Shown: positions 733 to 38,170 of the stretch, in pieces | Numbering within the stretch: the first letter of the stretch is position 1 | Layout of the letters: each line of letters begins with the position of its first letter | IMG/VR virus record: IMGVR_UViG_3300050821_001955 | DNA from: an uncultured virus (IMG/VR IMGVR_UViG_3300050821_001955) | Taxonomy: Duplodnaviria; Heunggongvirae; Uroviricota; Caudoviricetes | DNA length: 64,000 nucleotides | Reading direction: 5' to 3' (one strand) | Position numbers and translations under genes: made by a program | The notes under the pieces: generated by a model | The model's database searches: none | What the model saw: only the letters and a program-made list of their open reading frames with translations | Told to the model about the DNA's origin: nothing

Positions 733-1551
733 CTAGGCGTCCCTTGTCCTTCTTAGATAATCCTCGTTTTGAGCCTTAGCTCGGCAGCTAGGACATACTC
801 CTGCTTCGTTTGATCTATGTATAGGATTTACTTTACATACTGAACAGAACCGATCATAAGAGCTATCCGTCACCCTCTTTAGTCCATCGCCAAACGAGAC
901 AACAGGGTCTTTAATAATCGGGATAGAATCATCCGGAGGTTCCGCGAATCCTGAGCCGGTTTGAGTAAGAGGTTCTTTAGGATCTAACCACTTGAACTTA
1001 ACTTTAGCACTAGCTAGCTCTAAGTCCGAACAACGGGTAATACTAGATAAATTCGGCCCTATTTTATCTAACGGACAAGGATCAGATAGCTTACAAGTAC
1101 ATTTACATGTAATAGGGTCTAGTACGGGAGTAAACCAAGGGTATTTAGACTTAACTATCTCTCGCTCTCCTTCCCTATCTCGATTCTCTTCTTTTGCTAA
1201 TTCTTCACTAAACTTCTCCGGATAACGGAGCTTCAACTTATTTATGTTAGCTTCCATAACGTCTGCTAGAGAGATACCGAGAGTATTACAAGCGAGAGCA
1301 ATATACCAAAGACAATCTCCTAGCTCCTCTTTGATATTCGTATCGTCTCGTTGTTGACCGTAGTAAATCCACTTCTCAATAGCTCCCGCTAGCTCTCCTA
1401 CTTCTCCGGTTAGTCCTAATACTGAGTGATTAAGCCTTATCGGTGCTCCTATAATAACTATAGGTTTGGAATTAGGATTCATTCTATTCATTGATTGTAG
1501 ATAATCACATTCTGTTCTAGCCGCTAGTCGTTGATACTCGTTAGGATTCAC
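733..1551 (-). CDS. MazG-like NTP pyrophosphohydrolase with Cys-rich C-terminal extension
   Basis: LGLTGEVGEL...IKEELGDCLWYIA...NINKLKLRYP; C-terminal CxxC pairs. Confidence 0.85.
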   Translation of the reverse strand: MNPNEYQRLAARTECDYLQSMNRMNPNSKPIVIIGAPIRLNHSVLGLTGEVGELAGAIEKWIYYGQQRDDTNIKEELGDCLWYIALACNTLGISLADVMEANINKLKLRYPEKFSEELAKEENRDREGEREIVKSKYPWFTPVLDPITCKCTCKLSDPCPLDKIGPNLSSITRCSDLELASAKVKFKWLDPKEPLTQTGSGFAEPPDDSIPIIKDPVVSFGDGLKRVTDSSYDRFCSVCKVNPIHRSNEAGVCPSCRAKAQNEDYLRRTRDA

Positions 1552-1568: not shown

Positions 1569-2045
1569 TTAGTGCTTTTGAAGATTACTGAGATTGACCT
1601 CTATGAAAGACCCTACTAAATATATCTTAGTATTAGGATCATCTACAGCCATAATTCTAGCAGTATATAAGTTTTCTATTCTACCCGGTAATTTAGCGAT
1701 AATTTTTACTTCTCCTCTTAGTCTCCAGTCATCTATTCTTACGGTAGTTCCTATGAGATCATCTTGATCTTTAGTCTTAGACTGTTCCCACTCGATCAAC
1801 TTATCAAGATAGTGTCTAGCTTTGAGTAGATCCTCTATCCCATTCTTTTTATTCCAACGGCTACAATATTTTATGACTTGAGCTTCCATATAGTTAATAC
1901 CGTTAGAGAGGATATAATTCCAATGTTCTATTCCTCCCTTGTAATGACTTCCGGCAATCTGATACTCATCCGCTTTCTTAGCTCCTTGCTCGCTCATCCG
2001 TTTCTCCCCATAGCGTGAGTAAAAACTACTGTATCTTTCAAACAT
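1569..2045 (-). CDS. DUF3310 / T7 gp1.7-like nucleotide kinase domain protein (likely start at 1997)
   Basis: QIAGSHYK...IKYCSRWNKKNGIEDLLKARHYLDKLIE. Confidence 0.75.
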   Translation of the reverse strand: MFERYSSFYSRYGEKRMSEQGAKKADEYQIAGSHYKGGIEHWNYILSNGINYMEAQVIKYCSRWNKKNGIEDLLKARHYLDKLIEWEQSKTKDQDDLIGTTVRIDDWRLRGEVKIIAKLPGRIENLYTARIMAVDDPNTKIYLVGSFIEVNLSNLQKH

Positions 2046-2257
2046 TTAGGACATTCTAGTCTAGAGGGTTTTCCTTTTACTAGATCCGTTAGCTCCATAA
2101 ATCCTATAGACTGAGAGAGGTTACAAAGGTAGTAAACGTGTCTATGTCCTCTCCATTGACAGCTAGTACATAATACTCCGCAACGATGAGTACATCCCGT
2201 ATGAATTACGTTCTTTACTTTTCTCAAGTCTAGTCTTAGAGTAGAGAAGATTCCCAT
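1994..2257 (-). CDS. Hypothetical Cys-rich protein
   Basis: ORF tightly packed in the operon; two CxxC motifs. Confidence 0.5.
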   Translation of the reverse strand: MGIFSTLRLDLRKVKNVIHTGCTHRCGVLCTSCQWRGHRHVYYLCNLSQSIGFMELTDLVKGKPSRLECPKCLKDTVVFTHAMGRNG

Positions 2258-3513
2258 TATTCTCCCTTCCTATAAACACTATTAGCTTCCCAATTCTCTT
2301 GTCGTTTCTTAATCCAATTCGTCGCGATTACACGCCAATCATCTGACATTATCTTACTGCACCAGTATAGAGCTTTTTCGTAATTCCGTTTCTTATGAAA
2401 GTAGAAAGCATCGCACATAGGTTGAGCGGTAAATCCTAAAAACGGCTCACTCCAACTACAAATAGGATCTTCATACTTCCCACTATTTTTCTCTACAAAC
2501 TCTACTACTTCCTTATCAAATATGTGAGAGTCTTTTACTAAAGGAATCGTAACTACTATATCGTTCTCATAGCTCCATCGCTTAGGTGAGAATTGATCTC
2601 TATCAGTCTCATGCTCTAGCCATACTTCCGGTTTCCATCCGGAGTTTGTTTCTATATAGACGTGCATGTTATTTGAGACTTGATTATAGGTTCCTACGTC
2701 TAGTTCTAAGGCTGTAGCTATATACTCCTGAAGGAAGGAGAATACACAATAGTTAGCTCCCAAAGCCCCCCACAATAAATCATTGGAGCGATTGAATACA
2801 GTCATATTGAGATAGCGGGGTTGCTCACTAGGAGTTCCACTACAGCTAGGACAGGGATGTTTATCTATACTAGGGATATTAGCATCCGGATAAAATCCCA
2901 ATCCTTCACAAGACTTACATTCTCCTTTCTCAATTGAAAAGCAAATATTGAGATTACAACAGACGTCACGAGAGGTATCTATCTGTATCAAGTCGTTATC
3001 TATATCCCACATGTTAAGTACGGCACGACGGGACTCCGGTTTAGCTTTGAGATGGTCTATGATAAACCTGATCTGGTCTACTGCTGGAGGACCGTTGCAA
3101 CGATAGAAATAGTCCCCCTTCTCAATCTTAGCAAACGGATTATCGTAATGGGCGTGTTCGTCACTAGGATAGTAATAACCGTTTCTCCATCTCATACCGT
3201 ATGACCCATTCAACGTCTCTCCGTCATCGGAATATTCGGCAAACTGTTTGCTATAGTAAGCTAACGGGGCTACGTCGTTTCGACCGGAGAGCATGTAGAG
3301 AGCTTCGTACATGAGACTGAAAGGATTGACGTCTCGACTCTCGTTAAATAGACACCGCTCCTTCGGGTGAGAGTAAGAGAGGATTACCGGCTCTTCAACT
3401 CTCAAGACTTCGCCATTGCGAGAGGCTTCTATCGTTACCGGGATACGTCCGCTCTGAATTCCGGACACTACGCCTACAAAAGCGTCGTTACAATTCTTGT
3501 ACTTGAGGTGCAT
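2257..3513 (-). CDS. Thymidylate synthase-like protein, probable dUMP hydroxymethylase
   Basis: YSDDG..LNGSYG.RW, SRRAVL, DVCCN (catalytic Cys), RSNDLLWGALGANY (Asn consistent with a dU substrate), NNMHVY; next to 5-hmdU-processing genes. Confidence 0.85.
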   Translation of the reverse strand: MHLKYKNCNDAFVGVVSGIQSGRIPVTIEASRNGEVLRVEEPVILSYSHPKERCLFNESRDVNPFSLMYEALYMLSGRNDVAPLAYYSKQFAEYSDDGETLNGSYGMRWRNGYYYPSDEHAHYDNPFAKIEKGDYFYRCNGPPAVDQIRFIIDHLKAKPESRRAVLNMWDIDNDLIQIDTSRDVCCNLNICFSIEKGECKSCEGLGFYPDANIPSIDKHPCPSCSGTPSEQPRYLNMTVFNRSNDLLWGALGANYCVFSFLQEYIATALELDVGTYNQVSNNMHVYIETNSGWKPEVWLEHETDRDQFSPKRWSYENDIVVTIPLVKDSHIFDKEVVEFVEKNSGKYEDPICSWSEPFLGFTAQPMCDAFYFHKKRNYEKALYWCSKIMSDDWRVIATNWIKKRQENWEANSVYRKGE

Positions 3514-3695: not shown

Positions 3696-3708
3696 GTAGT
3701 TATACTAC
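3696..3708. promoter_or_regulatory. Palindromic operator-like motif GTAGT-N3-ACTAC (copy 1, inverted)
   Basis: Reverse complement of GTAGTATAACTAC seen at 24270, 26015 and 28288. Confidence 0.65.
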
Positions 3709-3771
3709 CGGCGGGACTCCCGAGAGGGTTCCGAAAGTCCTTTGAAAATCCGAGAGATAGGAAAACGAATC

Positions 3772-4245
3772 ATGGTAAAGTCTGAAGTTGTCGATGCTGG
3801 CGGCGGAATCGGTGTTGAAGTTCCGGTTGGAGAAGCTCCGAAAAAGGCTGCTGCTAAGAAGGTTCCGGCCAAGACGTCCGCTCCGGCGAAAAAGACTCCC
3901 GCTAAGAAAACCGCTCCGGTTAAGGGTGCGGCGAAAAAGACGGCTGCTCCGAAAGAGAAAAAAGAACGAGCACCCCGCGAACCGAAATTGCTCGGAAAGC
4001 CTCAGACCGCGATTTTGACCGTTCTCGCAAAGCATCCGGACGGTTTGACCCGTACCCAAATTTCGGAAAAGACGGAAATCAAATCCGGCTTCTCCTCTCT
4101 CTTGGGTCATCTTGAGCCCGAGAAGCGTGAGCCCCAATCTTTGGCTGCTCGTGGCCTCATCAAGATCGTAACGGAGGAGGAAGGAACGGTCCATAAGATT
4201 ACCGCCGATGGTAAGAAGATTTTGGATAAGGTTTTGAAAGGCTGA
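3772..4245 (+). CDS. Histone H1-like Lys/Ala/Pro-rich protein with a C-terminal winged-helix-like domain
   Basis: PKKAAAKK/PAKK repeats followed by Q.AIL.VL...DGLTR.QI; ATG at 3772 after AGGAAA; own promoter and terminator. Confidence 0.65.
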   Translation: MVKSEVVDAGGGIGVEVPVGEAPKKAAAKKVPAKTSAPAKKTPAKKTAPVKGAAKKTAAPKEKKERAPREPKLLGKPQTAILTVLAKHPDGLTRTQISEKTEIKSGFSSLLGHLEPEKREPQSLAARGLIKIVTEEEGTVHKITADGKKILDKVLKG

Positions 4246-4263
4246 TCTACCGGACTTTCCGGA

Positions 4264-4296
4264 AACCCTAGGCGGATTACCGTCTGGGGTTTTTTA
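4264..4296 (+). terminator. Intrinsic terminator (possibly bidirectional)
   Basis: aaaccctaggcgg-atta-ccgtctggggttttttt between convergent genes. Confidence 0.75.
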
Positions 4297-5133
4297 TTTG
4301 GTCCGTTTTCCAACCGAGAGATTATCTCTAAGGTGCTCTATACTATTGGTACGGAATAGGGCTACCGATACTCCCGATTGGTCTATCACCCACTCTAGGC
4401 TCTCGCTCGCCTCTTTCCGGAGACTTCCTTGGCCCAACGAACTATAAGCGATCACCCGGACGTTTAGAGACTCGCAAAACGGAATCAAAAACTCCGTATT
4501 TCCTCTATCTTTTGTATTTAGCCTTACCTGATTAGAGACGATTTCAAATCCTCTCTCCCGAGCGAGTCTAATTGCCCTTACTAACTGACCGCCACAGAAG
4601 TTACATACTCCTACTCGGTCGATAACTTTTTGGGAAAGTAACTCTGTCATCGCATCAAGAGTCTTTTCTAAGGGAGCTAGAGGATTAGGCCAATGAATCT
4701 GATAAAGATCAATTCTCCCTAAGTTCTCTCGGCTTCTCTTTCCGGCCGAAATCGTTGCCGTTTCAGATAGGTGGTTTCTCGCTACTTTCGTAGCTATCCA
4801 AGTCTCATATCCTATCTCTTTCAAAACCTTACCGAGTTCCTTCTCAACCTTTCCAAATCCATATCCTTCCGCTGTATCGATAAGTCCTACCCCTAATCGA
4901 AGGGCTTCTTCCATAATTTGGGAATTATACTTCCATCCATAAGTACCCAAACCGAGAGAAGGTAAGTTCCAATCATTATTCGGAACAGGAGAAATTTTAG
5001 GATATTCCAACCATCGTCTAGCGGAGACTCTTAGTAAATCCGGACTTCTATATTCTTCTAAGGTTTCCCTCCACTTCTCTTCCCACATCGCCCCTCTCAT
5101 TGCATCTCTAAGTTTAGCCTCTTGAGTATTCAC
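4294..5133 (-). CDS. Aldo/keto reductase family protein
   Basis: LGLGTY, IDTAEGYG, ATKV, IDLYQIHWP, GVCNF, NQV, AYSSLGQG; D-Y-K-H tetrad present. Confidence 0.9.
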   Translation of the reverse strand: MNTQEAKLRDAMRGAMWEEKWRETLEEYRSPDLLRVSARRWLEYPKISPVPNNDWNLPSLGLGTYGWKYNSQIMEEALRLGVGLIDTAEGYGFGKVEKELGKVLKEIGYETWIATKVARNHLSETATISAGKRSRENLGRIDLYQIHWPNPLAPLEKTLDAMTELLSQKVIDRVGVCNFCGGQLVRAIRLARERGFEIVSNQVRLNTKDRGNTEFLIPFCESLNVRVIAYSSLGQGSLRKEASESLEWVIDQSGVSVALFRTNSIEHLRDNLSVGKRTK

Positions 5134-6017
5134 TTAAATTTCTCCAAAGCTTTTTTGGCTACTAATCCTGTTAATCCTAAGCCTACTCGATGACCTCCAG
5201 TAGCTACTACAATTCGGGGAGAAATTTTCTCTACTAAGAACTTATCGGCTATTGGTCGATAACCCTCAATTAGATTTATCTCCCTTACATCTTTCAATAT
5301 AGTATTCTGGACTATTCTTAGATTTGTAATAGCCGTCTCTTTTGGAGTATTCTCTGCCGTATCTCCTACTCGGTATTCTCCTATCCTTTTTCCCCATCTC
5401 CTTATAGTGTGCTTAACGTAAGGCTTTATCATTACAGATACGGGAATTTTAGACTGAGTAGTTCCTCTACTTAATATCCCTCTACCATAAAGCTTAGAGA
5501 CTCCTAACCTACATAGTCCCGAATCTTCTAAAAGCTTATCCGTAGAATATCCTCCTGCTAAAACGAGATAAGTACATGAGATACAACTTTCTCCTTCCCA
5601 TACCGACACCCGTCTAGAATCTTCTATAATATTTTCAACCTCAAACCTTTGAGAGTCTACTAATCCCGTTATAGTTTCATTAGAGTCTATGTAGATCGCT
5701 TTAGCTCCCTCTCGATAGGATCTTCCTTGAAAGCTATTTAAGAATCCTTCTTGAGTAACCTTCCCTCCTCTCTCTATTAACCAGCTAAGACTATTATCCA
5801 AATCTTCTTTAGACCAATCTGAGGGAAAATATTTCGAGAAGATAGGAGACTTATAAGAACTAGGATCGCAGATAGCAGAAGCATTTCTACTACCCGAAAG
5901 AGGATCTTTTGAGTCTAAGACTATTACTCGTTTTCCTCTCTTTTTAGCTTCATAAGCTATTCCCGCTCCCCAATAGCCTCCTCCAATTACTATCAGATCA
6001 TAAGTAAGACTTACCAT
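5130..6017 (-). CDS. FAD-dependent oxidoreductase (D-amino acid oxidase/glycine oxidase-like)
   Basis: DLIVIGGGYWG Rossmann motif, GS.NAS, LAGGY, GYRP, ATGGHRVGL. Confidence 0.85.
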   Translation of the reverse strand: MVSLTYDLIVIGGGYWGAGIAYEAKKRGKRVIVLDSKDPLSGSRNASAICDPSSYKSPIFSKYFPSDWSKEDLDNSLSWLIERGGKVTQEGFLNSFQGRSYREGAKAIYIDSNETITGLVDSQRFEVENIIEDSRRVSVWEGESCISCTYLVLAGGYSTDKLLEDSGLCRLGVSKLYGRGILSRGTTQSKIPVSVMIKPYVKHTIRRWGKRIGEYRVGDTAENTPKETAITNLRIVQNTILKDVREINLIEGYRPIADKFLVEKISPRIVVATGGHRVGLGLTGLVAKKALEKFK

Positions 6018-6799
6018 AATCCTCCTCTTTTACCCGCGGCTAGTAACTGTTGACTTGTCTTACATTTCGCGAATCGGAGAAGCCCCTTACGGAGTCCCAT
6101 AACGTCCTCTCCTAATTCGTAATGTCCTTTTAGATATGATCCGTGTTTACATAAAATAGTTTCACACTCCTGAAGGTTTATCTTCCTCTCGTAACGGGGA
6201 GGAGCGAGAGTATCTCCTAAACGCTCTAGGATCGATTCTACGGCTATCGAGACGACGTTAGAGGGAATTACCTTATCTTCCCCGTACTCGCATTTATAGA
6301 GGATCGTAGCGGCTTTAGCGGGAGAGTCGTAAACGAACGAAAACGAGTTACGGAACGAAACTCTAGAAAGATTTAACCGCTCTACCATATCGGCTACTTT
6401 GAACGCAATCCACGGACCATAGCCAACCCAAGTCTTTACGTAGTCTATTAACTCTTCAGCTGCTAAGTCATTTGCTAATAACGGAGTGAATAAAGCTTCT
6501 ATCCCTTTCCGCTCTTGAAACTCTACAGCCTTTCTCGCGTTCTCTCCTCTAAAATGTCTACGCTCATGACATCTCGGCCATTCCTTACTACTAGCCGCTA
6601 GTCTCATCGCTTTCCAATAGTCCGGTTGATCGACTATCCAAGAGGATGTTCCTGAATGATAGAAGTTAAAGAAGCAGAGAAGCCATTTACATAACTTAGG
6701 CTTTGGTAACTTAGCTTCCCATAGTGCTAGGTACAGCGGATCAAGATCATTGGTGTCTAAGAGAATCTTACCGAATTCGTAGACTGATAGCTGACTCAT
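6011..6799 (-). CDS. Amino acid:DNA transferase (aGPT-Pplase1/AADT family)
   Basis: FG..LL.TNDLDPLY, WPR.HERRHFRG, GYGPWIAFKVADM.ER and QECETILCK motifs of thymidine-hypermodification transferases. Confidence 0.85.
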   Translation of the reverse strand: MSQLSVYEFGKILLDTNDLDPLYLALWEAKLPKPKLCKWLLCFFNFYHSGTSSWIVDQPDYWKAMRLAASSKEWPRCHERRHFRGENARKAVEFQERKGIEALFTPLLANDLAAEELIDYVKTWVGYGPWIAFKVADMVERLNLSRVSFRNSFSFVYDSPAKAATILYKCEYGEDKVIPSNVVSIAVESILERLGDTLAPPRYERKINLQECETILCKHGSYLKGHYELGEDVMGLRKGLLRFAKCKTSQQLLAAGKRGGLW

Positions 6800-8214
6800 T
6801 TTTTCACGATACCTAGCTGAACTAAATCTCTCGGCACTCCTTGTCCTATCGGAATTTTAAGGTCCGCGAATCGTACCGCGTTAGCTTGACCGGCTAGTTC
6901 ATCTCCGCATCGGGGTTTACCGTCGTTTTCCGAAGCACAGTAGAGACATCCGCTAGGGGGACATTCTTCAACTTCTCTAAATAATTCATCTTCTGAGTCC
7001 CTAGTAAACATCGGGACACGATGTCCATGGCATTGTTCAGAGGTAGCAAACTTCCTCCCGATACTAACTCCTGTCTTACTTACTATCTGACCTTCTTCGT
7101 TCCTTTCATATTCATACTCGTAGCAGGTGCTATAAGTTAGTCCAAACCTCTTAGCATAAGAAGAGAATAGTCGATGAGACTTTATTCGATAGGCTTCTTG
7201 GATAGTCCGTTGTCCTCCTATGTTCTCCGTAAATAATTCTTCAAATAGTTTTCCCCTTTCTTCTCCAAATCGTTTCTTCATCTTAGCCACCATCGTAGGT
7301 GCCCAAGAATATCCGGCTTCTACAAACTTGACTATAACATGATCCGCTCCTACTTGAGCTAACTTCTTGAAAAGCTTTACTATCTGCTCGTTAGAAGTTA
7401 TTCCCGCTATGATAGGATTACATTGAATAGAAACGTAGATACCGGCTTTCTTAAGTCTACGAATATCTTCAAAATGTTCTTCTAACGGTAATGCCCCCGG
7501 AGAGAGGAATTGCCAGTCTCTAGGATCAGAAGTGTTGATAGACTTTTGAGCGTAGCTATAGGGACTCTGCTGCATAAGTTCTATCGCCCAATCCGGATAA
7601 CGGAGACGACTCAAGAAAAATATAGGGAGTCCTACCTTTACAAACTCTTCTGCCCCTTGCTGAGTATTATGATAATAATCCTCTAGAGGTAAGAATGGGT
7701 CACTGAAGCTCATAAAGTATCCAGCAGCTGCCCTTCTCATTTTTGATAGTTGCTTTTTTACTTGCTCTCCATAGTTTAGAGGGATGGTAATGAGTCCACT
7801 TCCTCTATATCCTCTAAAGCCAGAATTCACGTAGCAAAAATTACATCCAACACTACAATAACCACCCATCGGTTCCGTGAGTATTGCTTCCGAAAAACAT
7901 GGCCTTGGCCTTACTCCCGCTGGCTCATGTAGTCCCTTATACCAGCCTTGTAGTTCCTTAGCCTTATCAATCCGTATATGTTGAAAAGGCTTGAGGTATA
8001 CTAACACTTCTTTTTTATTTTCCTCCTTAGCATTACGAACCATTCCAATACTCATAGTTCGTACCTTAGTACGTCCTAAATATTCATCCTCTATTTCTTC
8101 TATTGGTCCTAATCCATCATGTGGCTCTGGTCGCATAAAATAATTGTACTGTTGGGGCGCTCCCCCTTCTTCGTCGGAATCTATTCTAGAAATCCAGTCT
8201 AATTCTGATTGCAT
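6796..8214 (-). CDS. Radical SAM enzyme in the DNA hypermodification cluster
   Basis: GYCSVGCNFCY (CxxxCxxC), SFSDPF; extra Cys cluster near the C-terminus (CPPSGCLYC). Confidence 0.85.
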   Translation of the reverse strand: MQSELDWISRIDSDEEGGAPQQYNYFMRPEPHDGLGPIEEIEDEYLGRTKVRTMSIGMVRNAKEENKKEVLVYLKPFQHIRIDKAKELQGWYKGLHEPAGVRPRPCFSEAILTEPMGGYCSVGCNFCYVNSGFRGYRGSGLITIPLNYGEQVKKQLSKMRRAAAGYFMSFSDPFLPLEDYYHNTQQGAEEFVKVGLPIFFLSRLRYPDWAIELMQQSPYSYAQKSINTSDPRDWQFLSPGALPLEEHFEDIRRLKKAGIYVSIQCNPIIAGITSNEQIVKLFKKLAQVGADHVIVKFVEAGYSWAPTMVAKMKKRFGEERGKLFEELFTENIGGQRTIQEAYRIKSHRLFSSYAKRFGLTYSTCYEYEYERNEEGQIVSKTGVSIGRKFATSEQCHGHRVPMFTRDSEDELFREVEECPPSGCLYCASENDGKPRCGDELAGQANAVRFADLKIPIGQGVPRDLVQLGIVKK

Positions 8215-8783
8215 AATAAATTATCCTTGACATGTTTCCAAGATTTATAGTGAACTATGCTCCAAATTACAGCTTGAGTTACTCCATATCGTTTACCAAG
8301 TTTACCTTGAGAGAGTATTCCCCTTTGGTATAGGTCCCTTATTTCTCTAACATTTTGTTCTGTAAGCTTAGCTAGCCAATTAGTTATCCCAACGTTTCTA
8401 GAACCATTATCCCTTCCGTGGTCTTTCCTATCCTTACAATTCTCTATATGCGTTCCCCATTTTAAGTTACATAATCGATTATCAGAAGGATTACCATTTA
8501 AATGTCTACATTCTTCTCCTTCCGGACTAGGACCAACAAACGTAATAAGTAACAGTCTATGTATTCCTCTATAATCGTGTCCGGATCTATCTAGTCTTTT
8601 CAGATTAACTGATACATATCCCTCTTCGTTTATTGTAGGATTTAATATTCTATAATAAGTACCTACGTCGTCTACTAATATATGTTCGGAGTATTTAGAA
8701 GGTTCGGTGTCTATTACTGCTCCTAACTTATTTATCCTATAACGATTGTACCCCGGTATAGGAGTAAATTGACTAACTAACAT
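8199..8783 (-). CDS. NUMOD4-HNH homing endonuclease
   Basis: PIPGYNRYRINKLG, IHRL...FVGP, CRHLNGNPSDNRLCNLKWGT. Confidence 0.9.
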   Translation of the reverse strand: MLVSQFTPIPGYNRYRINKLGAVIDTEPSKYSEHILVDDVGTYYRILNPTINEEGYVSVNLKRLDRSGHDYRGIHRLLLITFVGPSPEGEECRHLNGNPSDNRLCNLKWGTHIENCKDRKDHGRDNGSRNVGITNWLAKLTEQNVREIRDLYQRGILSQGKLGKRYGVTQAVIWSIVHYKSWKHVKDNLLCNQN

Positions 8784-9328
8784 TACTTACCCTTTATCCA
8801 TTTAAGGATGATACTAGGTGCTTGGTTAACGCTACTGCGGATAGCTATTATACCCGATTCCTTTAGCTTCAGTCTTGACCGTTCTATAACTTTTATTCTA
8901 TTTGTAGTATTAGCCGGATTAAGAGGCTTCTCATTCCCTACGCTCGCTCTCCTAGCTTCTATCTGCTTAAGACATTGACTAAGAGGGGTGATAAGGTAGA
9001 TAACTCTCAAATCCTCTAGTTGACTACACCACTTTGTATCTTCCGACAATAGAAGCCCTTCGCAAAGTATTGTCGGTTTTTTATGGCTACTTAGTATGTC
9101 TTGAATTAAGTCGTAAACGGCTTTAGCACTTCCTACGTTATCGCACCCACCGCACATACTCTCATAATGTCCTAGTACAATAACTCCTCTATACTTAGTG
9201 TTGACGTAGTAGAGAGGCTTTTTCCTTCCTTCCGTTCCGATAGGTTCCCAATGACCTAGAGTCTCCATTACCTTTTTCATAACCCAAGTTTTACCACTTC
9301 CGCTAGTTCCCCTCACATTTATTATCAT
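8783..9328 (-). CDS. P-loop nucleotide kinase associated with the thymidine hypermodification cluster
   Basis: IINVRGTSGSGKT Walker A; LGHY...CGGCD; CEGLLLS. Confidence 0.8.
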   Translation of the reverse strand: MIINVRGTSGSGKTWVMKKVMETLGHWEPIGTEGRKKPLYYVNTKYRGVIVLGHYESMCGGCDNVGSAKAVYDLIQDILSSHKKPTILCEGLLLSEDTKWCSQLEDLRVIYLITPLSQCLKQIEARRASVGNEKPLNPANTTNRIKVIERSRLKLKESGIIAIRSSVNQAPSIILKWIKGK

Positions 9329-10182
9329 TCGTCACCAAACCCGTTATACAGTTGTTTCGGCCTGCCTTCAAAGTGGAGAGTCTTAGTATACTTACTGAAC
9401 TCGCATAGGGTATTTTGTATATCAATCATTTCCATTCGATTAAATAGTTTACTAGGTAATTTCTTAGCATAGATTTTCTTAAGGTCTTGTAACTCCTCTA
9501 CAAACTGAGGCTCTTTGATATGTCCTCCGATACTTCTACCTAGTAAACGGTTCATACCCTTTTGAGATCCTGGACCTGGGGGTGCCCAGTCTTTAGCATC
9601 CTCCCAAGTACCTTCCATAGCCCATCGAAGATCTGCTACACATTGACCACTCATGAAATCCCCAAAACCGAATCGTTGTCTTAGCTCTCCCCAAGTAAGC
9701 TTCATAGAGTCCGTATGAATGATTATAGGGTTATCTACTAGCGGCTGAACAGTATAGTCCATTACCGAGCTTACTTTGTCGTCTGTTCCGCTATTCCCCC
9801 GAACCATGTAGGCGGCAGAGTAGATAGCAACTCCACTAGCTTTTAAGTCTCTCGCTATCTTCTTGATCTTCTCTAAATCCCATTTCTTTGGGAAACCTAT
9901 AGCCGTAAGAGTCTCTATCTTATTGAAGTGTCTAGCCATCGCTATAGCCGGTAGCATATTCTTATGACCAAAATTAGGAGTATACCAATTCTCTTGAAGC
10001 CATCGAGATACCTTATCGTCAGCACGAATCACGTTGCAAAAACGATAGGACTGAAAGATCAAGTCGTCTGTGTAAGGTAGCTTTTCTCCCGCTTCCTTTT
10101 TGAGTCGAATCGATTCACGTTCTCGACACCAGTACAATAGTTGCTCTATCCTAGACAGTCCCTTTACTAGCTCTACTTTCAT
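9325..10182 (-). CDS. 5-hydroxymethyluracil DNA kinase (aGPT-Pplase2 family)
   Basis: ERESIR, TDD.IFQSYRFCNV.R.DDKVS, RHFN, G.G.FMSGQ.VADL, GPGS.KG, IQNTLCEFSKY. Confidence 0.85.
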   Translation of the reverse strand: MKVELVKGLSRIEQLLYWCRERESIRLKKEAGEKLPYTDDLIFQSYRFCNVIRADDKVSRWLQENWYTPNFGHKNMLPAIAMARHFNKIETLTAIGFPKKWDLEKIKKIARDLKASGVAIYSAAYMVRGNSGTDDKVSSVMDYTVQPLVDNPIIIHTDSMKLTWGELRQRFGFGDFMSGQCVADLRWAMEGTWEDAKDWAPPGPGSQKGMNRLLGRSIGGHIKEPQFVEELQDLKKIYAKKLPSKLFNRMEMIDIQNTLCEFSKYTKTLHFEGRPKQLYNGFGDE

Positions 10183-10808
10183 ACTTTCCCTATCTTGACT
10201 AGATTTGATTTAACTACTCGCTCCGGTACGTTAGTTCCCATCGCTTCTTTCCAGTCTCTCTTAATCACGGGCTTCCAACCGTCATCTACTAAGAGTTGAT
10301 ATGTCTTAGGTCTAAGGATCTTGAGTAGGTTTGGATTCGTTACAAAGACTCTAAATATCTCCGCGAACCATTCAGCGTGGTTAGGACAGTAGTTAGTGAT
10401 TTTTGGTTCCTTAGTAGTCTCTTGTATCGCCTTACTATACTCCGACCAATATTTCCCCGTCGTGATATGCTTTACCTGTCCTCTATGTACGTCACAAGCA
10501 TGTCCTAGCTCGTGAGCTATAACTCCGAAAGGTTCCCTATCGATAGTGCTTCCTGGCCAAGTCCAATTCATAGACGTTTCTAACCCGCAAGGCCATCCGC
10601 AATGTTCTAGACAAATAGGAATCTTATTGAAACGGTAATAAGCACATACGCTAGAAAAATCCCAACTATCTTTAGGAGTAACTTCAACAGTAGGAATGGG
10701 AACATCGTTTACGTTACAAAACTCTTCCATGAGTTCTTTACCAAGTCCTAGTAGCTCTGTTTTGTCTTTAGGGAACGCTTTAGGAAGTCTAAATGCTATC
10801 CTTACCAT
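10179..10808 (-). CDS. Zincin-like HExxH metalloprotein
   Basis: IAHELGH plus downstream EWFAE third-ligand motif. Confidence 0.65.
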   Translation of the reverse strand: MVRIAFRLPKAFPKDKTELLGLGKELMEEFCNVNDVPIPTVEVTPKDSWDFSSVCAYYRFNKIPICLEHCGWPCGLETSMNWTWPGSTIDREPFGVIAHELGHACDVHRGQVKHITTGKYWSEYSKAIQETTKEPKITNYCPNHAEWFAEIFRVFVTNPNLLKILRPKTYQLLVDDGWKPVIKRDWKEAMGTNVPERVVKSNLVKIGKV

Positions 10809-10809
10809 T

Positions 10810-11037
10810 TTATACTCTCTCCCATCCTTTCTCTGCTGACTTAGCTCTATACCAAACTACTGTACTTCTCTCGTCTAATCCTATTTTAAGTACCGGATAT
10901 TCTCCCCTCTCTACCTTAAATTCTATAGATGTAATACTATCCCATTGTTCTTGAGTTAGTCCCGATTCTTCCTGAGATAAATCTAAGTGACTTAGAGTCT
11001 CATTAACCGGAACTTGATCAGGTAGGTAGTCTTTCAT
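10810..11037 (-). CDS. Hypothetical protein
   Basis: Tightly packed ORF. Confidence 0.5.
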   Translation of the reverse strand: MKDYLPDQVPVNETLSHLDLSQEESGLTQEQWDSITSIEFKVERGEYPVLKIGLDERSTVVWYRAKSAEKGWERV

Positions 11038-11726
11038 AACTCTTCTACTTTCTTAGGCGGTCTAGTACCTCTACAACGTTGACATAGAGGTAGAAAGGAA
11101 TTCTCTCCACATTTCTCACAACTTTGCATTTTCCTACCAATTCTCTTTTTCGCTCCTTCTGATATTCTTTTTCTTGTATGAGCCGATAGGGATATTTTTC
11201 CGGTCCTATAGGCTTCCTTAAGTCCCTCTGATACTTTCTTGTTCCTCTCCGGCGTTGTATTCCATCTAACTCTACCAGAGTTTTCCTTCTTAGTTAGCCA
11301 TCTACAATTTTCTTTATCATAATCTCCATCCGGGTCTTCTCGATCTAGAGAATGTTCTATTGATGGACGGTCTCCCATATCCTCTAAGAAGTTAGCAAAT
11401 ATAAGCCATCTCTCGCAAATCTTTATCCCTTTATAACATTTTTGTTTTTTATCTTCGGGTAGGTAGAAGCATCTAGCTAGCATAGCCTTCCAAGAGATAT
11501 GAGTCAGTTTATGGGCTTCTCTCAACTCTTTTGGAGTAGTGATTAAGTATTTCTTACGTTTCTTAGTACAACCACAACACTTATTTGATTCTCTATTTAG
11601 TTGAAACGTAGTTAGCTTAACCTCATTACCGCATTCACATAAACACCACCAGCTATAGCCCCTTGGCCCTTCTCCCGCTAGTCTCTTTACCTGTAACTTA
11701 CCAAATACTCTACCGATCATTACCAC
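11034..11726 (-). CDS. HNH-type homing endonuclease with NUMOD3-like repeats
   Basis: W.C.CECG, ICERW..F.NFLEDMG.RP, SLDR...DGDY.KENCRW; RKRISE. Confidence 0.85.
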   Translation of the reverse strand: MVMIGRVFGKLQVKRLAGEGPRGYSWWCLCECGNEVKLTTFQLNRESNKCCGCTKKRKKYLITTPKELREAHKLTHISWKAMLARCFYLPEDKKQKCYKGIKICERWLIFANFLEDMGDRPSIEHSLDREDPDGDYDKENCRWLTKKENSGRVRWNTTPERNKKVSEGLKEAYRTGKISLSAHTRKRISEGAKKRIGRKMQSCEKCGENSFLPLCQRCRGTRPPKKVEEL

Positions 11727-32111: not shown

Positions 32112-32696
32112 ATGCCTAAAGGAATTTATAAAAGAAAATCAGTGAAGCAAATGTTTGAAGAGAGAACTGATAAAGAAAATGGGCCTATAGTTAGAAAAGA
32201 ATTAGGAAGATGTTGGATGTGGAAAGGAGGAAAATGTTATGGTTATGGACAATTTCATGTTATCGGTCAACATAGAGCCCACAGAGTAAGTTGGATACTC
32301 CACTGCGGGGAAATACCTAATGACCTGCTAGTCTTACATAAATGTGACAATCGGGCTTGTGTAAATCCTAAACATTTGTGGTTAGGTACTCATCAAGACA
32401 ATCAAACTGATAAAGTAGAAAAAGGGAGACAGGCTAAAGGGGATAGAAGTGGGTCTAGGCTTCATCCGGAAAGACGTTCTAGAGGTCAGAAACATAGTGA
32501 AGCGGTAAAAAGAAACACTCCTAGAGGAGAAAGGCATCACGGAGCTAAATTAACAAATAAGGATGTAATAGAAATTCGTCATATTTATAAAATAGGAGTA
32601 GTTACTATCATGGAATTAGCTATCAGGTATAGGTTACATCCAGATTCTATCAAAAATGTAGTCTATAGGAGGACTTGGAAACACATCCTCCCCTAA
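32112..32696 (+). CDS. HNH homing endonuclease
   Basis: CWMWKG, GYG.F, AHRVSW, VLHKCDNRACVNPKHL.LGT..DN. Confidence 0.9.
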   Translation: MPKGIYKRKSVKQMFEERTDKENGPIVRKELGRCWMWKGGKCYGYGQFHVIGQHRAHRVSWILHCGEIPNDLLVLHKCDNRACVNPKHLWLGTHQDNQTDKVEKGRQAKGDRSGSRLHPERRSRGQKHSEAVKRNTPRGERHHGAKLTNKDVIEIRHIYKIGVVTIMELAIRYRLHPDSIKNVVYRRTWKHILP

Positions 32697-34191: not shown

Positions 34192-34989
34192 CTATTGTCT
34201 ATCTAGGCGTCCCATGAGCTTATAACCGCTAGGAACTATTCCCGGTCCCTCTACTTTTTCCTGAAAGGAATCTACTCGTCTTTGACCGCTACCCCAACCC
34301 TTGTAATCTAAATAGTCGAGCATCTTTTGTCTATTAGCTTCCTGCCCCTCTATCACTTCTCCATCGATCCTCTCCGTAGCACGTCCGAACCAGTTAGCGT
34401 CTCGTTTTCCTAAATGTAATACATAGAACGGAAGCCGAACCTTGTTGGACAAATCCCACCTATTTTCAAAATATCCATCCCCTCCACCTGCATGATTAAA
34501 CTCTTCTGCGTACCAAGGTAGCTCTCGAATCGTCGGATCACTAGCATAGAACAATTGAAAATAACCTGGCCACGCTCTATCGTTACTTATCGGGAGACTC
34601 TCCCAATTAAGATCCTCTCGCCATTGCTTAGGGTCTGCTAAGATTCTCCGTCTAGGTCCGTAAAGCTTTCCCATCGTACAAGAATCTAGTTCCATCTTAT
34701 CGGGGAATAGGGTGTCCGCATCGAATATACAAATCCAACCATCCCTTCCTAGCTCTTCAAACCCCTCATTCATTGCTAAGCCCTTATTGAACTTAGCCCC
34801 AAACCGGGTAAAGGCATCTGTAAAGAAACATCGAGCGTTTGGAACCTTAGCAACTACCTGTTGAGTTCTTATATCTTCCGGAGTTGTTACAACCACTACT
34901 TCAGTCAAATGCCGGGCATTACGATGTAACGTTATAGCTAATAAATCATCATAATTAACACACACTACTATACCTTTGATTCCTATCAT
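34192..34989 (-). CDS. GT-A fold glycosyltransferase
   Basis: VCVNYDD.L, FNKG.A.N.G, FDAD DxD motif, GYFQLF. Confidence 0.75.
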   Translation of the reverse strand: MIGIKGIVVCVNYDDLLAITLHRNARHLTEVVVVTTPEDIRTQQVVAKVPNARCFFTDAFTRFGAKFNKGLAMNEGFEELGRDGWICIFDADTLFPDKMELDSCTMGKLYGPRRRILADPKQWREDLNWESLPISNDRAWPGYFQLFYASDPTIRELPWYAEEFNHAGGGDGYFENRWDLSNKVRLPFYVLHLGKRDANWFGRATERIDGEVIEGQEANRQKMLDYLDYKGWGSGQRRVDSFQEKVEGPGIVPSGYKLMGRLDRQ

Positions 34990-35759
34990 TTCTTAGCCTT
35001 TACATAATAGAAAGATTCTCGTTCGATATACTTCCGAGTAACAAACTTCTCTATAGTGAATCCCGCTAGCTCGATAGCTTTCCTAAGAGAAGCCTCTTTA
35101 AAGAACCATAGATGATCGGGATTAACCGGGTCACCGTCATCCGGTACTAAGAGATAGAGTAGTCCGCTAGGTACTAATAGCTTATACATCTTCTCTAAAG
35201 CTTTTGGAGCGTTATTCATATGCTCTAAACTATGAGCCGAGAGGATTATGTCACAGCGGTATCCTTCTTCAAATTCGTGAGTCTCAAAGTTCTCTTTGAT
35301 TACGTCTACATTGAATAGGTTTCTAGTAGCTTCTACCGCCCATCTATTATCGTCTATTCCTATGTACCAATATCCTTGTTGAATAATCTCCGGAGCGTAG
35401 CGACTTAACCCACAACCCACTTCTAAAGCTCTAGAACGATCATAACCTTTCTGCCCTTCTCCTATCTCTCCAAGAGCTTCCGTAAGCTGGTCTATTGCTT
35501 GCTTACAATTAGGTACTCCGTTCTCTATTGCGCCTAGACTCTTGTAATACTCTATCGGTAGCCCGCTCCTAGCTACTTGAGACATCTTAGCATGAGTAAA
35601 ACAAGTATGGACCCTATAAGCTGCTCCTGTAGGCTCATGGATAGCGTTTTGACATCCGCACTTATATCTAGTAGTTACCATTTGCCTATTCTCCTGTATT
35701 CCTAATCCAGTCCGCTCCAGGTATTCCGCTCTTGTAAATATACCAACTAGCCGGAACAT
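34986..35759 (-). CDS. Class I SAM-dependent methyltransferase
   Basis: LEVGCG, GID, HSLEH, LVPSGLLYLLVP. Confidence 0.85.
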   Translation of the reverse strand: MFRLVGIFTRAEYLERTGLGIQENRQMVTTRYKCGCQNAIHEPTGAAYRVHTCFTHAKMSQVARSGLPIEYYKSLGAIENGVPNCKQAIDQLTEALGEIGEGQKGYDRSRALEVGCGLSRYAPEIIQQGYWYIGIDDNRWAVEATRNLFNVDVIKENFETHEFEEGYRCDIILSAHSLEHMNNAPKALEKMYKLLVPSGLLYLLVPDDGDPVNPDHLWFFKEASLRKAIELAGFTIEKFVTRKYIERESFYYVKAKK

Positions 35760-36276
35760 CTTGAGTAATATAGACGGTGAGCTTATTAGCTTCCGAGAAC
35801 TGGGTAACTGCGGCCGTTACTCCCGGATGGTCTTTATCGAAGTCATGTCCCGCTAGTATCCCGCTCTTACCTACGAATTCCCACCATAGAGTCATATCGG
35901 CTATTACGGAGTCTTTATCATGAGCCCCATCTATATAGATGAACTTGAACTTACGAGACTCTAGGAAACCTATCTCTGCGTTCTTAATCTTCTCCGCTAC
36001 GTCTCTCGAATCCCCCCGAATAAGCTTAGCGATTCTCGCGTAGCGTTCGTAGCGACTAACGGCTATAAGATAATCGGCGTTACGGTCCCAAGGCATTTCC
36101 GGATAAGGCTCATAAGCGTCTATCCCTAAGTAGTTGAACCCTTGCCATCGACTAAGGAAGCATTGAGAGAACTCAGCCCGATCTACTCCTACTTCGATAG
36201 CAGTCCATAGCTTCCTCCAATTACAAAGTAGATTGAAGTCATCTCGATGCCATATTTCGGGGCTAGGTAGAATCAT
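35686..36276 (-). CDS. Class I SAM methyltransferase (Methyltransf_24-like)
   Basis: IEVGV, GID.Y, RGDS, FIYIDGAH, GILAGHD. Confidence 0.85.
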   Translation of the reverse strand: MILPSPEIWHRDDFNLLCNWRKLWTAIEVGVDRAEFSQCFLSRWQGFNYLGIDAYEPYPEMPWDRNADYLIAVSRYERYARIAKLIRGDSRDVAEKIKNAEIGFLESRKFKFIYIDGAHDKDSVIADMTLWWEFVGKSGILAGHDFDKDHPGVTAAVTQFSEANKLTVYITQDVPASWYIYKSGIPGADWIRNTGE

Positions 36277-36636
36277 TTATTTACCTGAATCGGAATGCCA
36301 AATTACTTCATTATTAGTAATATTGTAATGACTCTTACATCCACTCATTACTCGTACTGAAGGAGAGAGGGTAATAGTAGTAAACTCGTTAGAGATTCCT
36401 CCGGGAGCTACGTCTATTTTCCATTGTGGTTCTTTACTAGTTGATCTGTCTGGAGGACGATTTAAGTGCCCTCCGTCGCAACCGCAAGGACAGTAGTAAA
36501 AACACCCCTCAATATGTTCTCCTTCTCCATAAGTAGCGATTCCGCTACGAGAGTCATCATTCTCTACTAAAGTAAAAGCATCATCAGCCGTTTTAACATG
36601 CCCTAAGTATCTAAGCTTATTGATACGTTCACTCAT
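36277..36636 (-). CDS. DUF6527-like protein
   Basis: CPCGC...W....TLSPSV....CKSHY.I. Confidence 0.65.
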   Translation of the reverse strand: MSERINKLRYLGHVKTADDAFTLVENDDSRSGIATYGEGEHIEGCFYYCPCGCDGGHLNRPPDRSTSKEPQWKIDVAPGGISNEFTTITLSPSVRVMSGCKSHYNITNNEVIWHSDSGK

Positions 36637-37109
36637 ACTATCACCCTCTCTCTAGGGGTCATTAAAGCATCTTGCTCTGTCCAACCATTCTTAATTCGTC
36701 TCATAATCACTCTTCTAGTGAGTCCGGTTCCTTCTAACCTTTCGCACCATTGTTTTAATGTAAGTGTGAGTCCGTTAGCTGTTAGCCAAGTGTTACTCCT
36801 ACGATTATTAGCTTGATCTTTTCTAGTAGCCCATCTAACATTACCTGGCTCATAATTTCCATTATTTTCTATTCTCTCTAAGGTATGTTTTATAGTAGGT
36901 CTTTTTCCTACATGGTCTAAGAATAGTTGAAAAGACTTTAACCAAGGAGGGTAGATAGTTATTCCCCGTCCCCCGTAGTAAGGATAGAGAGCATTATCGG
37001 GATTTAGGCACCTAACTTTCATTAGAGTCCAAGAAGTATGTTCCGGAGTTCCACAAGCTCCGTGTTTAAATGCTATCTTATTTCCCTTTTTAACTCTACC
37101 CGAATTCAT
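36633..37109 (-). CDS. HNH-type homing endonuclease (short form)
   Basis: MK.RC.NP....YGGRGI, TLERI.NNGNYEPGNVRWAT. Confidence 0.85.
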   Translation of the reverse strand: MNSGRVKKGNKIAFKHGACGTPEHTSWTLMKVRCLNPDNALYPYYGGRGITIYPPWLKSFQLFLDHVGKRPTIKHTLERIENNGNYEPGNVRWATRKDQANNRRSNTWLTANGLTLTLKQWCERLEGTGLTRRVIMRRIKNGWTEQDALMTPRERVIV

Positions 37110-38053: not shown

Positions 38054-38163
38054 TATTGTTTCCTAACTACGGGAACTTCATAATAGTCGGTATTTAAATC
38101 GCTAGCTGACTTACCTTCCGTGACTAAGTAGTAGAACCAATCGCTAACGGAGCTACACCATTG
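38053..38163 (-). pseudogene. Orphaned former 3' end of the upstream glycosyltransferase gene
   Basis: Translates QWCSSVSDWFYYLVTEGKSASDLNTDYYEVPVVRKQ*, paralogous to the C-terminus of 38800..39831. Confidence 0.8.
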
Positions 38164-38170
38164 AAATATA

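Follow-up and report, generated by a model that had tools for sequence, protein, structure and literature searches.

A phage thymidine-hypermodification operon in which a flavoenzyme and a phage-only aldo-keto reductase take the place of the PLP decarboxylase

Gene content of the operon

A 64,000-nucleotide stretch of DNA from an uncultured virus (IMG/VR record IMGVR_UViG_3300050821_001955), called the window throughout, contains a thymidine-hypermodification operon that ends with a flavoenzyme and an aldo-keto reductase (AKR). A Pfam scan of the open reading frames (ORFs) identifies the window as phage DNA, with genes for a tape measure protein and a family A DNA polymerase and with numerous HNH genes. 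Seven minus-strand ORFs fill positions 4294–10182, and in the ORF listing their adjoining ends overlap by 1–16 bases. Seven overlapping, co-oriented genes had been described here by a sequence-only reading; the ORF list, Pfam and PHROGs reproduce both their exact limits and their families.

The first gene (9325..10182) encodes a helical protein of family PF18723 (HMUDK_hel), a homologue of gp55 of phage M6 (E-values: PF18723 7.7e-44, phrog_2396 3.5e-50). It is followed by a putative P-loop kinase of the M6 gp54 type (8783..9328; phrog_800 6.4e-16), an inserted HNH homing-type endonuclease (8199..8783; HNH_3 1.1e-10, phrog_59 8e-32) and a radical S-adenosylmethionine (rSAM) enzyme orthologous to M6 gp53 (6796..8214; phrog_9252 3.9e-188). 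An amino acid:DNA transferase (AADT) of the clade 2 aGPT-Pplase type (6011..6799; PF18724 ADDT 1.2e-10, phrog_6364 8e-51), a short FAD-dependent amine oxidase of 295 aa (5130..6017; PF01266 DAO 1.2e-17) and the AKR (4294..5133; PF00248 Aldo_ket_red 9.6e-36) complete the series. The HNH gene is a variable insertion between the kinase and rSAM genes. It is absent from the related loci L031 and L007, where the rSAM gene directly follows the kinase gene, and a version with 39% identity is present in L027.

A hairpin of 15 pairs, seven of them G-C, lies directly after the stop codon of the AKR gene (4261..4294), between the convergent AKR and plus-strand genes, and is probably a two-way terminator. 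The hairpin is a single site, and the region shows no general enrichment of terminator-like sites (5 found, 8.2 expected). The AKR gene is the last one before this long hairpin and therefore part of this transcription unit. Since the hairpin and an opposite-strand gene (3742..4245) separate it from a thymidylate synthase (TS)-family gene further on, the AKR closes the operon.

No pyridoxal phosphate (PLP) enzyme and no acetyltransferase (GNAT) is present among the 77 window ORFs compared with Pfam, which agrees with what had been read from the sequence. L025 is an identical fragment from another assembly that runs 2.6 kb past the window start. These 2.6 kb add only GIY-YIG and primase-like genes, again without a PLP enzyme or GNAT.

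Enzymes leading to C-α-glycinylthymidine

In phage M6, the kinase gp54 and the AADT gp51 form N-α-glycinylthymidine (N-α-GlyT, 315 u), the rSAM enzyme gp53 converts it to C-α-GlyT and the PLP enzyme gp52 decarboxylates the latter (PMC8989533). In PaMx11, the FAD enzyme gp47 cleaves N-α-GlyT to 5-aminomethyl-deoxyuridine (5-NmdU) and glyoxylate, and gp48 acetylates the product (PMC8989533, PMC11472151). The account of the M6, PaMx11 and ViI pathways given with the sequence-only reading agrees with Lee 2021 (PMC8989533).

The experimentally shown DNA kinase of M6 for 5-hydroxymethyl-deoxyuridine (5-hmdU) is the P-loop protein gp54, and the PF18723 protein gp55 is dispensable for GlyT formation in vitro (PMC8989533). 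The P-loop protein of the window (8783–9328) falls into the gp54 type and is likely a 5-hmdU DNA kinase. Its Pfam AAA matches are weak (E ~0.003, below cut-off) and PF18748 is not matched directly; this protein and M6 gp54 both match a single gene in each of L007, L005, L012 and L021. The PF18723 protein is 26% identical to gp55 and probably accessory. One of the labels proposed earlier, that of the 5-hmdU DNA kinase, is refined accordingly.

The rSAM enzyme shares 57.4% identity with M6 gp53 over 96% of the protein. Residues 120–127 form the CxxxCxxC motif (CSVGCNFC; CTVGCAFC in M6), and the Pfam Radical_SAM match (6e-4) is below cut-off. The AADT is 33–35% identical to M6 gp51 and PaMx11 gp46. 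It combines the PF18724 domain with a catalytic cysteine: Glu213, Thr214 and Cys217 match by motif the catalytic Glu243, Thr244 and Cys247 of gp46, and Trp130 and Lys134 match its glycine-binding Trp146 and Lys150. Each of these residues is conserved in 32 of 32 family members, and the transferase is probably glycine-specific. The predicted steps as far as C-α-GlyT are well supported by homology, because the rSAM enzyme is so close to gp53 (57%) and the AADT keeps the residues that match those of gp46.

Six C-terminal cysteines of the rSAM enzyme (Cys364, Cys395, Cys418, Cys423, Cys426 and Cys436) are kept in 24–25 of 25 family members. This pattern suggests an auxiliary Fe-S cluster, of which the available text of Lee 2021 makes no mention (PMC8989533).

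The TS-family gene (2257..3513, minus strand; PF00303 2.6e-16, phrog_5131 1.2e-85) likely encodes a dUMP hydroxymethylase that supplies 5-hmdU; such a gene had been noticed near the operon before. The protein shares 32% identity with what is annotated as the M6 gp58 region, and 33–45% with its counterparts in L027, L028 and L031. With the M6 pathway to 5-aminoethyl-deoxyuridine (5-NedU) the window has in common homologues of gp51, gp53, gp54 and gp55 and the nearby TS-like gene. It differs in gene order, in the inserted HNH gene and, above all, in having a flavoenzyme and an AKR instead of a gp52-type PLP decarboxylase. The end product therefore cannot be 5-NedU by the M6 route.

Flavoenzyme

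The best solved match of the flavoenzyme family profile is PaMx11 gp47 (NGTO; pdb entries 8z2o and 8z79), over the full length and with an E-value of 1.6e-20. The AlphaFold model of the window protein (pLDDT 96.6) has 8z79_A as its top Foldseek match (TM-scores 0.76 and 0.78, 22% identity). Glycine and sarcosine oxidases and MnmC1 come next (7cyx, 1ryi, 1ng3, 1el5). These DAO/GR2 enzymes, including ThiO, also dehydrogenate a C–N bond next to a carboxylate, but exceed the window protein by about 80 residues and have free amino acids or tRNA as substrates, whereas the window protein groups with DNA-acting phage enzymes.

Residues were compared in gp47 numbering across 20 sequences, namely the enzymes of eight rSAM/AKR loci, gp47 and those of 11 of the 35 other flavoenzyme loci described below. 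The 11 were chosen for long flavoenzyme matches before the columns were inspected. Arg242, which is proposed to hold the substrate carboxylate in gp47 (PMC11472151), is kept in all 20 (Arg254 in the window). The Pro179-Tyr180 DNA wedge is kept in 18 of 20 (Pro199 and Tyr200 in the window). Judged by the structural match to gp47 and by these features, the flavoenzyme likely acts on DNA-borne bases.

Trp51, on the other hand, separates the two groups. This residue stacks on the flipped base in the crystal structure of gp47 with DNA (PMC11472151). It is Trp in gp47 and in 11 of 11 enzymes from loci without rSAM or AKR, and is lost in eight of eight rSAM/AKR-linked enzymes. The position is occupied by Ser, Ala or Thr in seven of these (Ser54 in the window) and by Pro in L073. 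In a tree of 29 sequences the rSAM/AKR-linked enzymes form one clade (clade A, support 91/99, including one long-branched and probably mis-extracted row), with the exception of the L073 enzyme, which groups with gp47 (support 100/100). Trp51 is thus lost twice independently, both times in an rSAM/AKR context, and this argues for a changed substrate geometry. The pattern suggests that the substrate of the rSAM/AKR-linked enzymes differs from that of gp47. The loss may be tied to the position of the oxidisable Cα, which lies one bond closer to the ring in C-α-GlyT than in N-α-GlyT.

In the PaMx11 pathway to 5-acetylaminomethyl-deoxyuridine (5-AcNmdU; AADT gp46, NGTO gp47, gp48), the flavoenzyme has the same short (~290 aa) GR2-type fold, carboxylate-binding Arg and Pro-Tyr wedge. 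The window enzyme belongs to another clade and has Ser in place of Trp51 and Arg in place of Lys268. In addition, the window has no acetyltransferase, an rSAM gene is present and an AKR gene follows the flavoenzyme gene.

Aldo-keto reductase

The closest solved relative of the AKR is the Thermotoga enzyme 5dan (5e-28). Its catalytic tetrad (Asp86, Tyr91, Lys116 and His147) is invariant in 18 of 18 members of the phage subfamily and lies on a complete barrel of eight strands in the predicted structure (pLDDT 90.5). The tetrad His marks carbonyl-reducing AKRs rather than double-bond reductases. Asn178, Gln202, Ser231 and Gln235, which are taken to be the usual cofactor contacts of AKRs, are also invariant, and the position of the usual C-terminal Arg is His267. 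Sequence and model together make the protein look like a working carbonyl reductase.

The subfamily has several features of its own. An N-terminal extension of 55 residues forms two helices (residues 3–18 and 31–41 in the model) and contains the invariant Arg22. Arg119, His121, Arg133 and Ser134 are likewise invariant in all 18 members. Arg119, three residues past the catalytic Lys, is specific to the subfamily and would fit a carboxylate-bearing substrate. The isoelectric point (pI) is at least 8.3 in 13 of the 18. Such high values are unusual among AKRs and would suit nucleic-acid binding. Bacterial 2,5-diketo-D-gluconate reductases (Thermotoga maritima 5dan and 6kik; DkgA and DkgB) share the tetrad and the barrel, but lack the ~55-residue two-helix extension and the K-V-x-R-[ND]-H motif after the catalytic Lys; the phage proteins are also mostly basic, and in those of the thymidine clusters the C-terminal helix region is shortened. 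The match to the NCBIfam DkgB model (3e-15) is far below cut-off.

The subfamily is found only in viral contigs, beside rSAM genes. No paper linking an AKR to phage DNA hypermodification was found in the literature searched. A predicted complex of the flavoenzyme with the AKR scored 0.00, which speaks neither for nor against binding.

Co-conservation of the flavoenzyme and the AKR

Related loci were collected with three independent baits. The rSAM protein retrieved 19 loci from viral contigs, with neighbours called by tblastn at E-values up to 1e-4. A gp52-type PLP gene is present in 14 of these and the flavoenzyme with the AKR in one (L008). Three, all from one phage, have neither (L016, L017 and L022), and the contig of the last (L011) ends after the rSAM gene. 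None of the 19 combines a PLP gene with the flavoenzyme and AKR.

The second bait, a profile of 43 flavoenzyme homologues (A1; drawn from 70 protein clusters), was run against metagenome and viral contigs and gave 47 loci. An AKR and/or rSAM match accompanies the flavoenzyme in 12. Two of the 12 come from the window itself and three duplicate other records, which leaves L027, L028, L029 (identical to L008), L030, L031, L032 and L033 as distinct loci, the last two being nearly identical to each other. The remaining 35 have neither an AKR nor an rSAM match, and 14 of them have an AADT directly upstream, similar to PaMx11.

The third bait was an AKR alignment, which retrieved 16 loci from viral contigs; an earlier scan with the single AKR protein had given only the distant, unrelated L003. 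Three of the 16 are L031, L028 and L029 again, twelve belong to a different context described below and one is new. In this locus, L073, the order AADT-AKR-flavoenzyme-rSAM was confirmed by Pfam.

Taken together, the flavoenzyme adjoins the AKR in seven further lineages (L027, L028, L029/L008, L030, L031, L032/L033 and L073), and an rSAM gene and an AADT gene accompany them in all but L030. Co-conservation of the AKR with AADT clusters, on which the sequence-only reading depended, is therefore observed. The pair occurs in two gene orders, rSAM-AADT-flavoenzyme-AKR and AADT-(X)-AKR-flavoenzyme-rSAM, and the AKRs of the other pair-carrying lineages are 35–54% identical to that of the window. At E-values up to 1e-4, tblastn with M6 gp52 has no match in the window fragments or the seven lineages. 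The gp48 acetyltransferase has none in the window fragments or any locus with the flavoenzyme and AKR.

Among GenBank phages, megablast with the 5.9-kb region gave no match. The AKR found 22 records by tblastn, all below 32% identity and none covering 80% of the protein. Most of these records are host-like contigs or fragments without annotation, and in none is the match part of a hypermodification cluster. The flavoenzyme matched only the Microbacterium phages Kozie and MO526 (27–30% identity). No cultured phage with the pair was found in these searches. The flavoenzyme profile has no relative in 185,579 species genomes (one per prokaryote species).

Several of these loci have further genes of interest. 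In MO526 the neighbours of the flavoenzyme-like gene (L088:4911-5702) are hypothetical genes, and neither an AKR nor an rSAM gene is annotated there. In L030, a 7.3-kb marine scaffold, the flavoenzyme-AKR pair is flanked by DUF7192 and Peptidase_M19-family genes (L030:27-4239). Methyltransf_11 and MT-A70 genes lie just downstream of the AADT-AKR-flavoenzyme-rSAM block of L073, a high-G+C contig (12055-12666 and 14480-15049); the hydroxy acid might be methylated there. The rSAM-type cluster of L017 (9311-14292; same phage as L016 and L022) contains two PF18748 kinases, an AADT, an HNH gene and a 2-oxoglutarate-Fe(II) oxygenase (PF13640, 1.1e-11), with no PLP enzyme, flavoenzyme or AKR, and may point to yet another thymine derivative.

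Exchange of the PLP decarboxylase for the flavoenzyme and AKR

The PLP-type locus L007 is syntenic with the window from the polymerase to MazG (identities of 69% for rSAM, 56% for AADT, 42% for TS and 34% for MazG). Where the window has the flavoenzyme and AKR, between the AADT gene and the opposite-strand gene, L007 has a PLP enzyme (PF00291, 9e-13) and an ORF of 186 aa.

A quick maximum-likelihood tree of 23 rSAM sequences was computed with midpoint rooting and with the Shimodaira-Hasegawa-like approximate likelihood-ratio test (SH-aLRT) as the only support; the truncated L027 and L028 were left out. In this tree, the loci of the flavoenzyme/AKR type occur at no fewer than three places among those of the PLP type. 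A starred clade unites the window and L031 with L004, L007, L009–L011 and L018, whereas L008 and L033 are placed apart from it and L073 falls among L013, L015 and L016. Different downstream modules thus follow one and the same rSAM orthologue, and behind it the PLP decarboxylase and the flavoenzyme with the AKR are alternatives that exclude each other. This is the main reason to place the flavoenzyme and the AKR after the rSAM step.

A second context of the AKR

The twelve other contigs retrieved with the AKR alignment (L075, L076 and L078–L087; 31–44% G+C) contain the AKR in a syntenic block of the replication module. The gene order (L075:4716-14163) is a PAPS-reductase-like protein, a protein of unassigned family (224 aa), an rSAM enzyme (356 aa), a methyltransferase-fold protein (239 aa), the AKR, a second rSAM enzyme (469 aa), two more proteins of unassigned family (282 and 253 aa) and the sliding clamp. 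Comparison by hhalign relates both rSAM enzymes to the M6-type family (probability 95–96%). The AKRs have the same N-terminal extension and invariant residues as those of the thymidine clusters. The twelve contigs lack homologues of the flavoenzyme, AADT, kinase, PLP enzyme and TS. Four proteins of this context that have no assigned function were compared by hhalign with the alignments of the AADT, the PF18723 and P-loop proteins, the PLP enzyme, the flavoenzyme and the AKR, and reach a probability of at most 1.6%. Searches of GenBank phages with an AKR of this context gave no real match.

The block looks like a DNA modification system of uncharacterised kind. The AKR subfamily is accordingly tied to rSAM enzymes like spore photoproduct lyase (SPL) more generally, which supports a role on DNA. 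The interpretation proposed from the window alone is supported, as each of its computationally accessible parts held; an exclusive coupling of the AKR to the flavoenzyme, however, is weakened by these twelve contigs.

In L080 (9926-11773), and also in L082 and L086, one rSAM protein has 615 aa and a weak match to intein splicing (PF14890, 5e-4, below cut-off). The ORF that precedes the 615-aa gene falls into the same rSAM cluster, and an intein or a split gene may be present.

Proposed pathway and alternatives

The gene set, its novelty relative to the printed record and the co-conservation are established, and the cluster probably makes a DNA base that is not yet described. The following pathway is proposed as the most economical explanation. 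By homology to reconstituted enzymes, the TS-like enzyme would form 5-hmdUMP, which is incorporated into DNA. Again by homology, the P-loop kinase would phosphorylate 5-hmdU in DNA, the AADT would exchange the phosphate for glycine to give N-α-GlyT and the rSAM enzyme would isomerise this to C-α-GlyT, i.e. 5-(2-amino-2-carboxyethyl)-deoxyuridine. Context and active-site features suggest the last two steps. The gp47-like flavoenzyme would flip the base and oxidise the Cα–N bond of the primary amino acid, and the resulting imino acid would hydrolyse to the α-keto acid 5-(2-carboxy-2-oxoethyl)-deoxyuridine. Finally, the AKR would reduce the ketone with NAD(P)H to the α-hydroxy acid 5-(2-carboxy-2-hydroxyethyl)-deoxyuridine. 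From the 315 u reported for GlyT, nucleoside masses of 315, 314 and 316 u are calculated for this series. Flavoenzyme and AKR would thereby stand in for the M6 PLP decarboxylase, with an anionic instead of a cationic side chain. A probability of roughly 45% is assigned to this conversion of C-α-GlyT to 5-(2-carboxy-2-hydroxyethyl)uracil via the keto acid. The wider proposal is tentative and somewhat less probable: that a phage-only AKR reduces carbonyls on bases within DNA, yields this uracil derivative together with a re-tooled oxidase and also marks a second DNA modification system in at least twelve contigs.

Several points weigh against the hydroxy-acid pathway. The twelve contigs of the second context have an AKR of this subfamily with one SPL-like rSAM gene on each side but no flavoenzyme, and the AKR is therefore not generally dependent on the product of the flavoenzyme. 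For the oxidation and the reduction, the argument is one of context. An anionic side chain would differ from most known thymidine hypermodifications, which add amines, and the α-keto acid could be lost to decarboxylation driven by hydrogen peroxide. About 8 kb of the 74,928-base contig are outside the data and the relatives were covered for 8 kb on each side, so that a PLP enzyme could be encoded elsewhere. L030 holds the pair without an AADT or rSAM gene within its 7.3 kb, and in L036 (1.4 kb) a clade-A-like flavoenzyme is followed by an unrelated ORF.

The second context raises the question whether the partner of the AKR is the rSAM enzyme rather than the flavoenzyme. The AKR would then reduce a carbonyl or imine arising from the rSAM reaction, such as an oxidised adduct or dehydroglycine that is set free, and the product of the flavoenzyme, keto acid or other, would be an end point or be handled differently. 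The AKR directly precedes the 469-aa rSAM gene and lies two genes after the 356-aa one in all twelve contigs, AKR and SPL-like rSAM genes occur together in both contexts and the invariant residues are common to 18 of 18 AKRs. However, no AKR match is present in any of the 14 PLP-type loci, which have the same rSAM orthologue (up to 69% identity), and in the thymidine clusters the AKR gene always adjoins the flavoenzyme gene and in none the rSAM gene. Furthermore, no carbonyl remains in the mechanism that has been proposed for the isomerase M6 gp53 (PMC8989533). This explanation is unlikely, although it comes closest among the alternatives. Quite improbable is a flavoenzyme that works on N-α-GlyT as in PaMx11, giving 5-aminomethyl-deoxyuridine and glyoxylate, with an AKR that detoxifies glyoxylate or another free carbonyl and an rSAM enzyme that competes, so that known bases are mixed. 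The full-length homology to gp47, the position of the L073 enzyme in the gp47 lineage and the retained carboxylate Arg would all fit. Yet glyoxylate release is also expected at the 35 flavoenzyme-baited loci without rSAM, and none of them has an AKR match; nor is an AKR annotated in the 10.8 kb of PaMx11 that were covered. Trp51 is lost exactly in the rSAM/AKR-linked enzymes, twice independently, and detoxification gives no reason for the strict link between the flavoenzyme clade and rSAM.

Further or different tailoring after the keto acid is improbable to a similar degree. The keto acid might lose CO2, through hydrogen peroxide or a further enzyme, and the AKR reduce an aldehyde to 5-(2-hydroxyethyl)-deoxyuridine, an alcohol already named as an alternative by the sequence-only reading, or the hydroxy acid might be modified, e.g. 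methylated. Aldehydes are common AKR substrates, the oxidase makes hydrogen peroxide according to the scheme for gp47 (PMC11472151), L073 has Methyltransf_11 and MT-A70 genes near the cluster and a methyltransferase-fold protein precedes the AKR of the second context. The window operon, by contrast, has no methyltransferase, and neither the window nor the 8-kb flanks of the seven related lineages yielded a decarboxylase. By general chemistry, decarboxylation of an α-keto acid by hydrogen peroxide gives a shorter carboxylic acid, not an aldehyde, and the invariant Arg119 near the catalytic Lys would fit a carboxylate substrate. Least credible, by a wide distance, is that the genes of the flavoenzyme and the AKR are auxiliary metabolic ones, placed in the operon by chance, whose products act on free metabolites of the host. 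Both do belong to very large families of small-molecule enzymes, and the L030 pair lies beside a Peptidase_M19-family gene with no AADT or rSAM in view. But the pair recurs in seven further lineages (six of the seven with rSAM and AADT) and in two gene orders, and all along the operon the ends of the genes overlap. Moreover, the flavoenzyme has a base-flipping enzyme bound to DNA as its closest solved relative, and no relative of the flavoenzyme family occurs in the 185,579 species genomes.

A role of the flavoenzyme and AKR as an NADPH-to-flavin electron supply for the rSAM cluster was considered and rejected. The carboxylate Arg and the DNA wedge of gp47 are kept, the same rSAM enzyme does without the pair in the PLP-type loci, and the second context has no flavoenzyme.

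Significance

Thymidine hypermodifications protect the DNA of phages against nucleases, restriction enzymes among them, and new enzymology on DNA has come with every further one. The printed record has four classes of tailoring enzymes (rSAM isomerase, PLP decarboxylase, flavin lyase and acetyltransferase), and a 2026 paper still names no others. If the hydroxy-acid pathway is correct, an NAD(P)H-dependent AKR would form the fifth class and would be the first of its superfamily with a demonstrated activity on nucleic acid. The oxidative deamination of a C-linked amino acid would be a new use of a flavin enzyme, and the base would have a hydroxy-acid side chain with a charge opposite to that of the known amine-bearing bases. 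The change of Trp51 offers a concrete handle on the substrate switch of the oxidase. New DNA-modifying enzymes are also useful for enzymatic labelling and for the sequencing of modified bases.

Neighbouring genes and further observations

The plus-strand gene at 3742..4245, which like the hairpin at 4261-4294 is absent from the sequence-only reading, encodes a protein with a Lys/Ala-rich, histone H1-like N-terminus and a winged-helix-like C-terminus. Its NCBIfam histone H1-like match (5.2e-7) and weak EarA/HTH matches are all below cut-off. ORFs with 44–50% identity lie at the same spot, on the strand opposite the operon, in L027, L028 and L031. The minus-strand ORFs 3700-4194 and 4107-4313 were rejected as a spacer gene between AKR and TS, since it is the plus-strand frame that is conserved in these three loci. 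A weak full-length counterpart is present in the PLP-type L007, and the gene is therefore not tied to the flavoenzyme/AKR module.

Beyond the TS-family gene, two minus-strand genes continue the region. The first encodes a DUF3310 protein whose PHROG relatives are labelled nucleotide kinase (1569..2045; PF11753 2.3e-11, phrog_236 3e-20); homologues lie near the cluster in M6, Bhz59, L005 and L017. The second encodes a MazG-like nucleotide pyrophosphohydrolase (733..1551; PF03819 4.2e-14, phrog_229 4e-37), with homologues of 34–55% identity downstream of the cluster in L007, L028 and L031, and may clear the competing canonical nucleotide. On the other side, a co-oriented minus-strand ORF of 209 aa (10179..10808) overlaps the PF18723 gene by four bases. 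It has weak zincin-like Pfam matches (Peptidase_M90 3.6e-4, ATLF 5e-4; both below cut-off) and no PHROG match, and no counterpart was found in the related loci.

Five HNH genes are present in the window (8199-8783, 11034-11726, 32112-32696, 36633-37109 and 38171-38800), several of them inside enzyme clusters. A second enzyme cluster lies beside the tail genes at 34192-39831 on the minus strand. It comprises a GT2-like protein, two methyltransferases, a DUF6527 protein, a radical SAM protein of 315 aa and a GT1 glycosyltransferase, and is broken up by two of these HNH genes (36633-37109 and 38171-38800).

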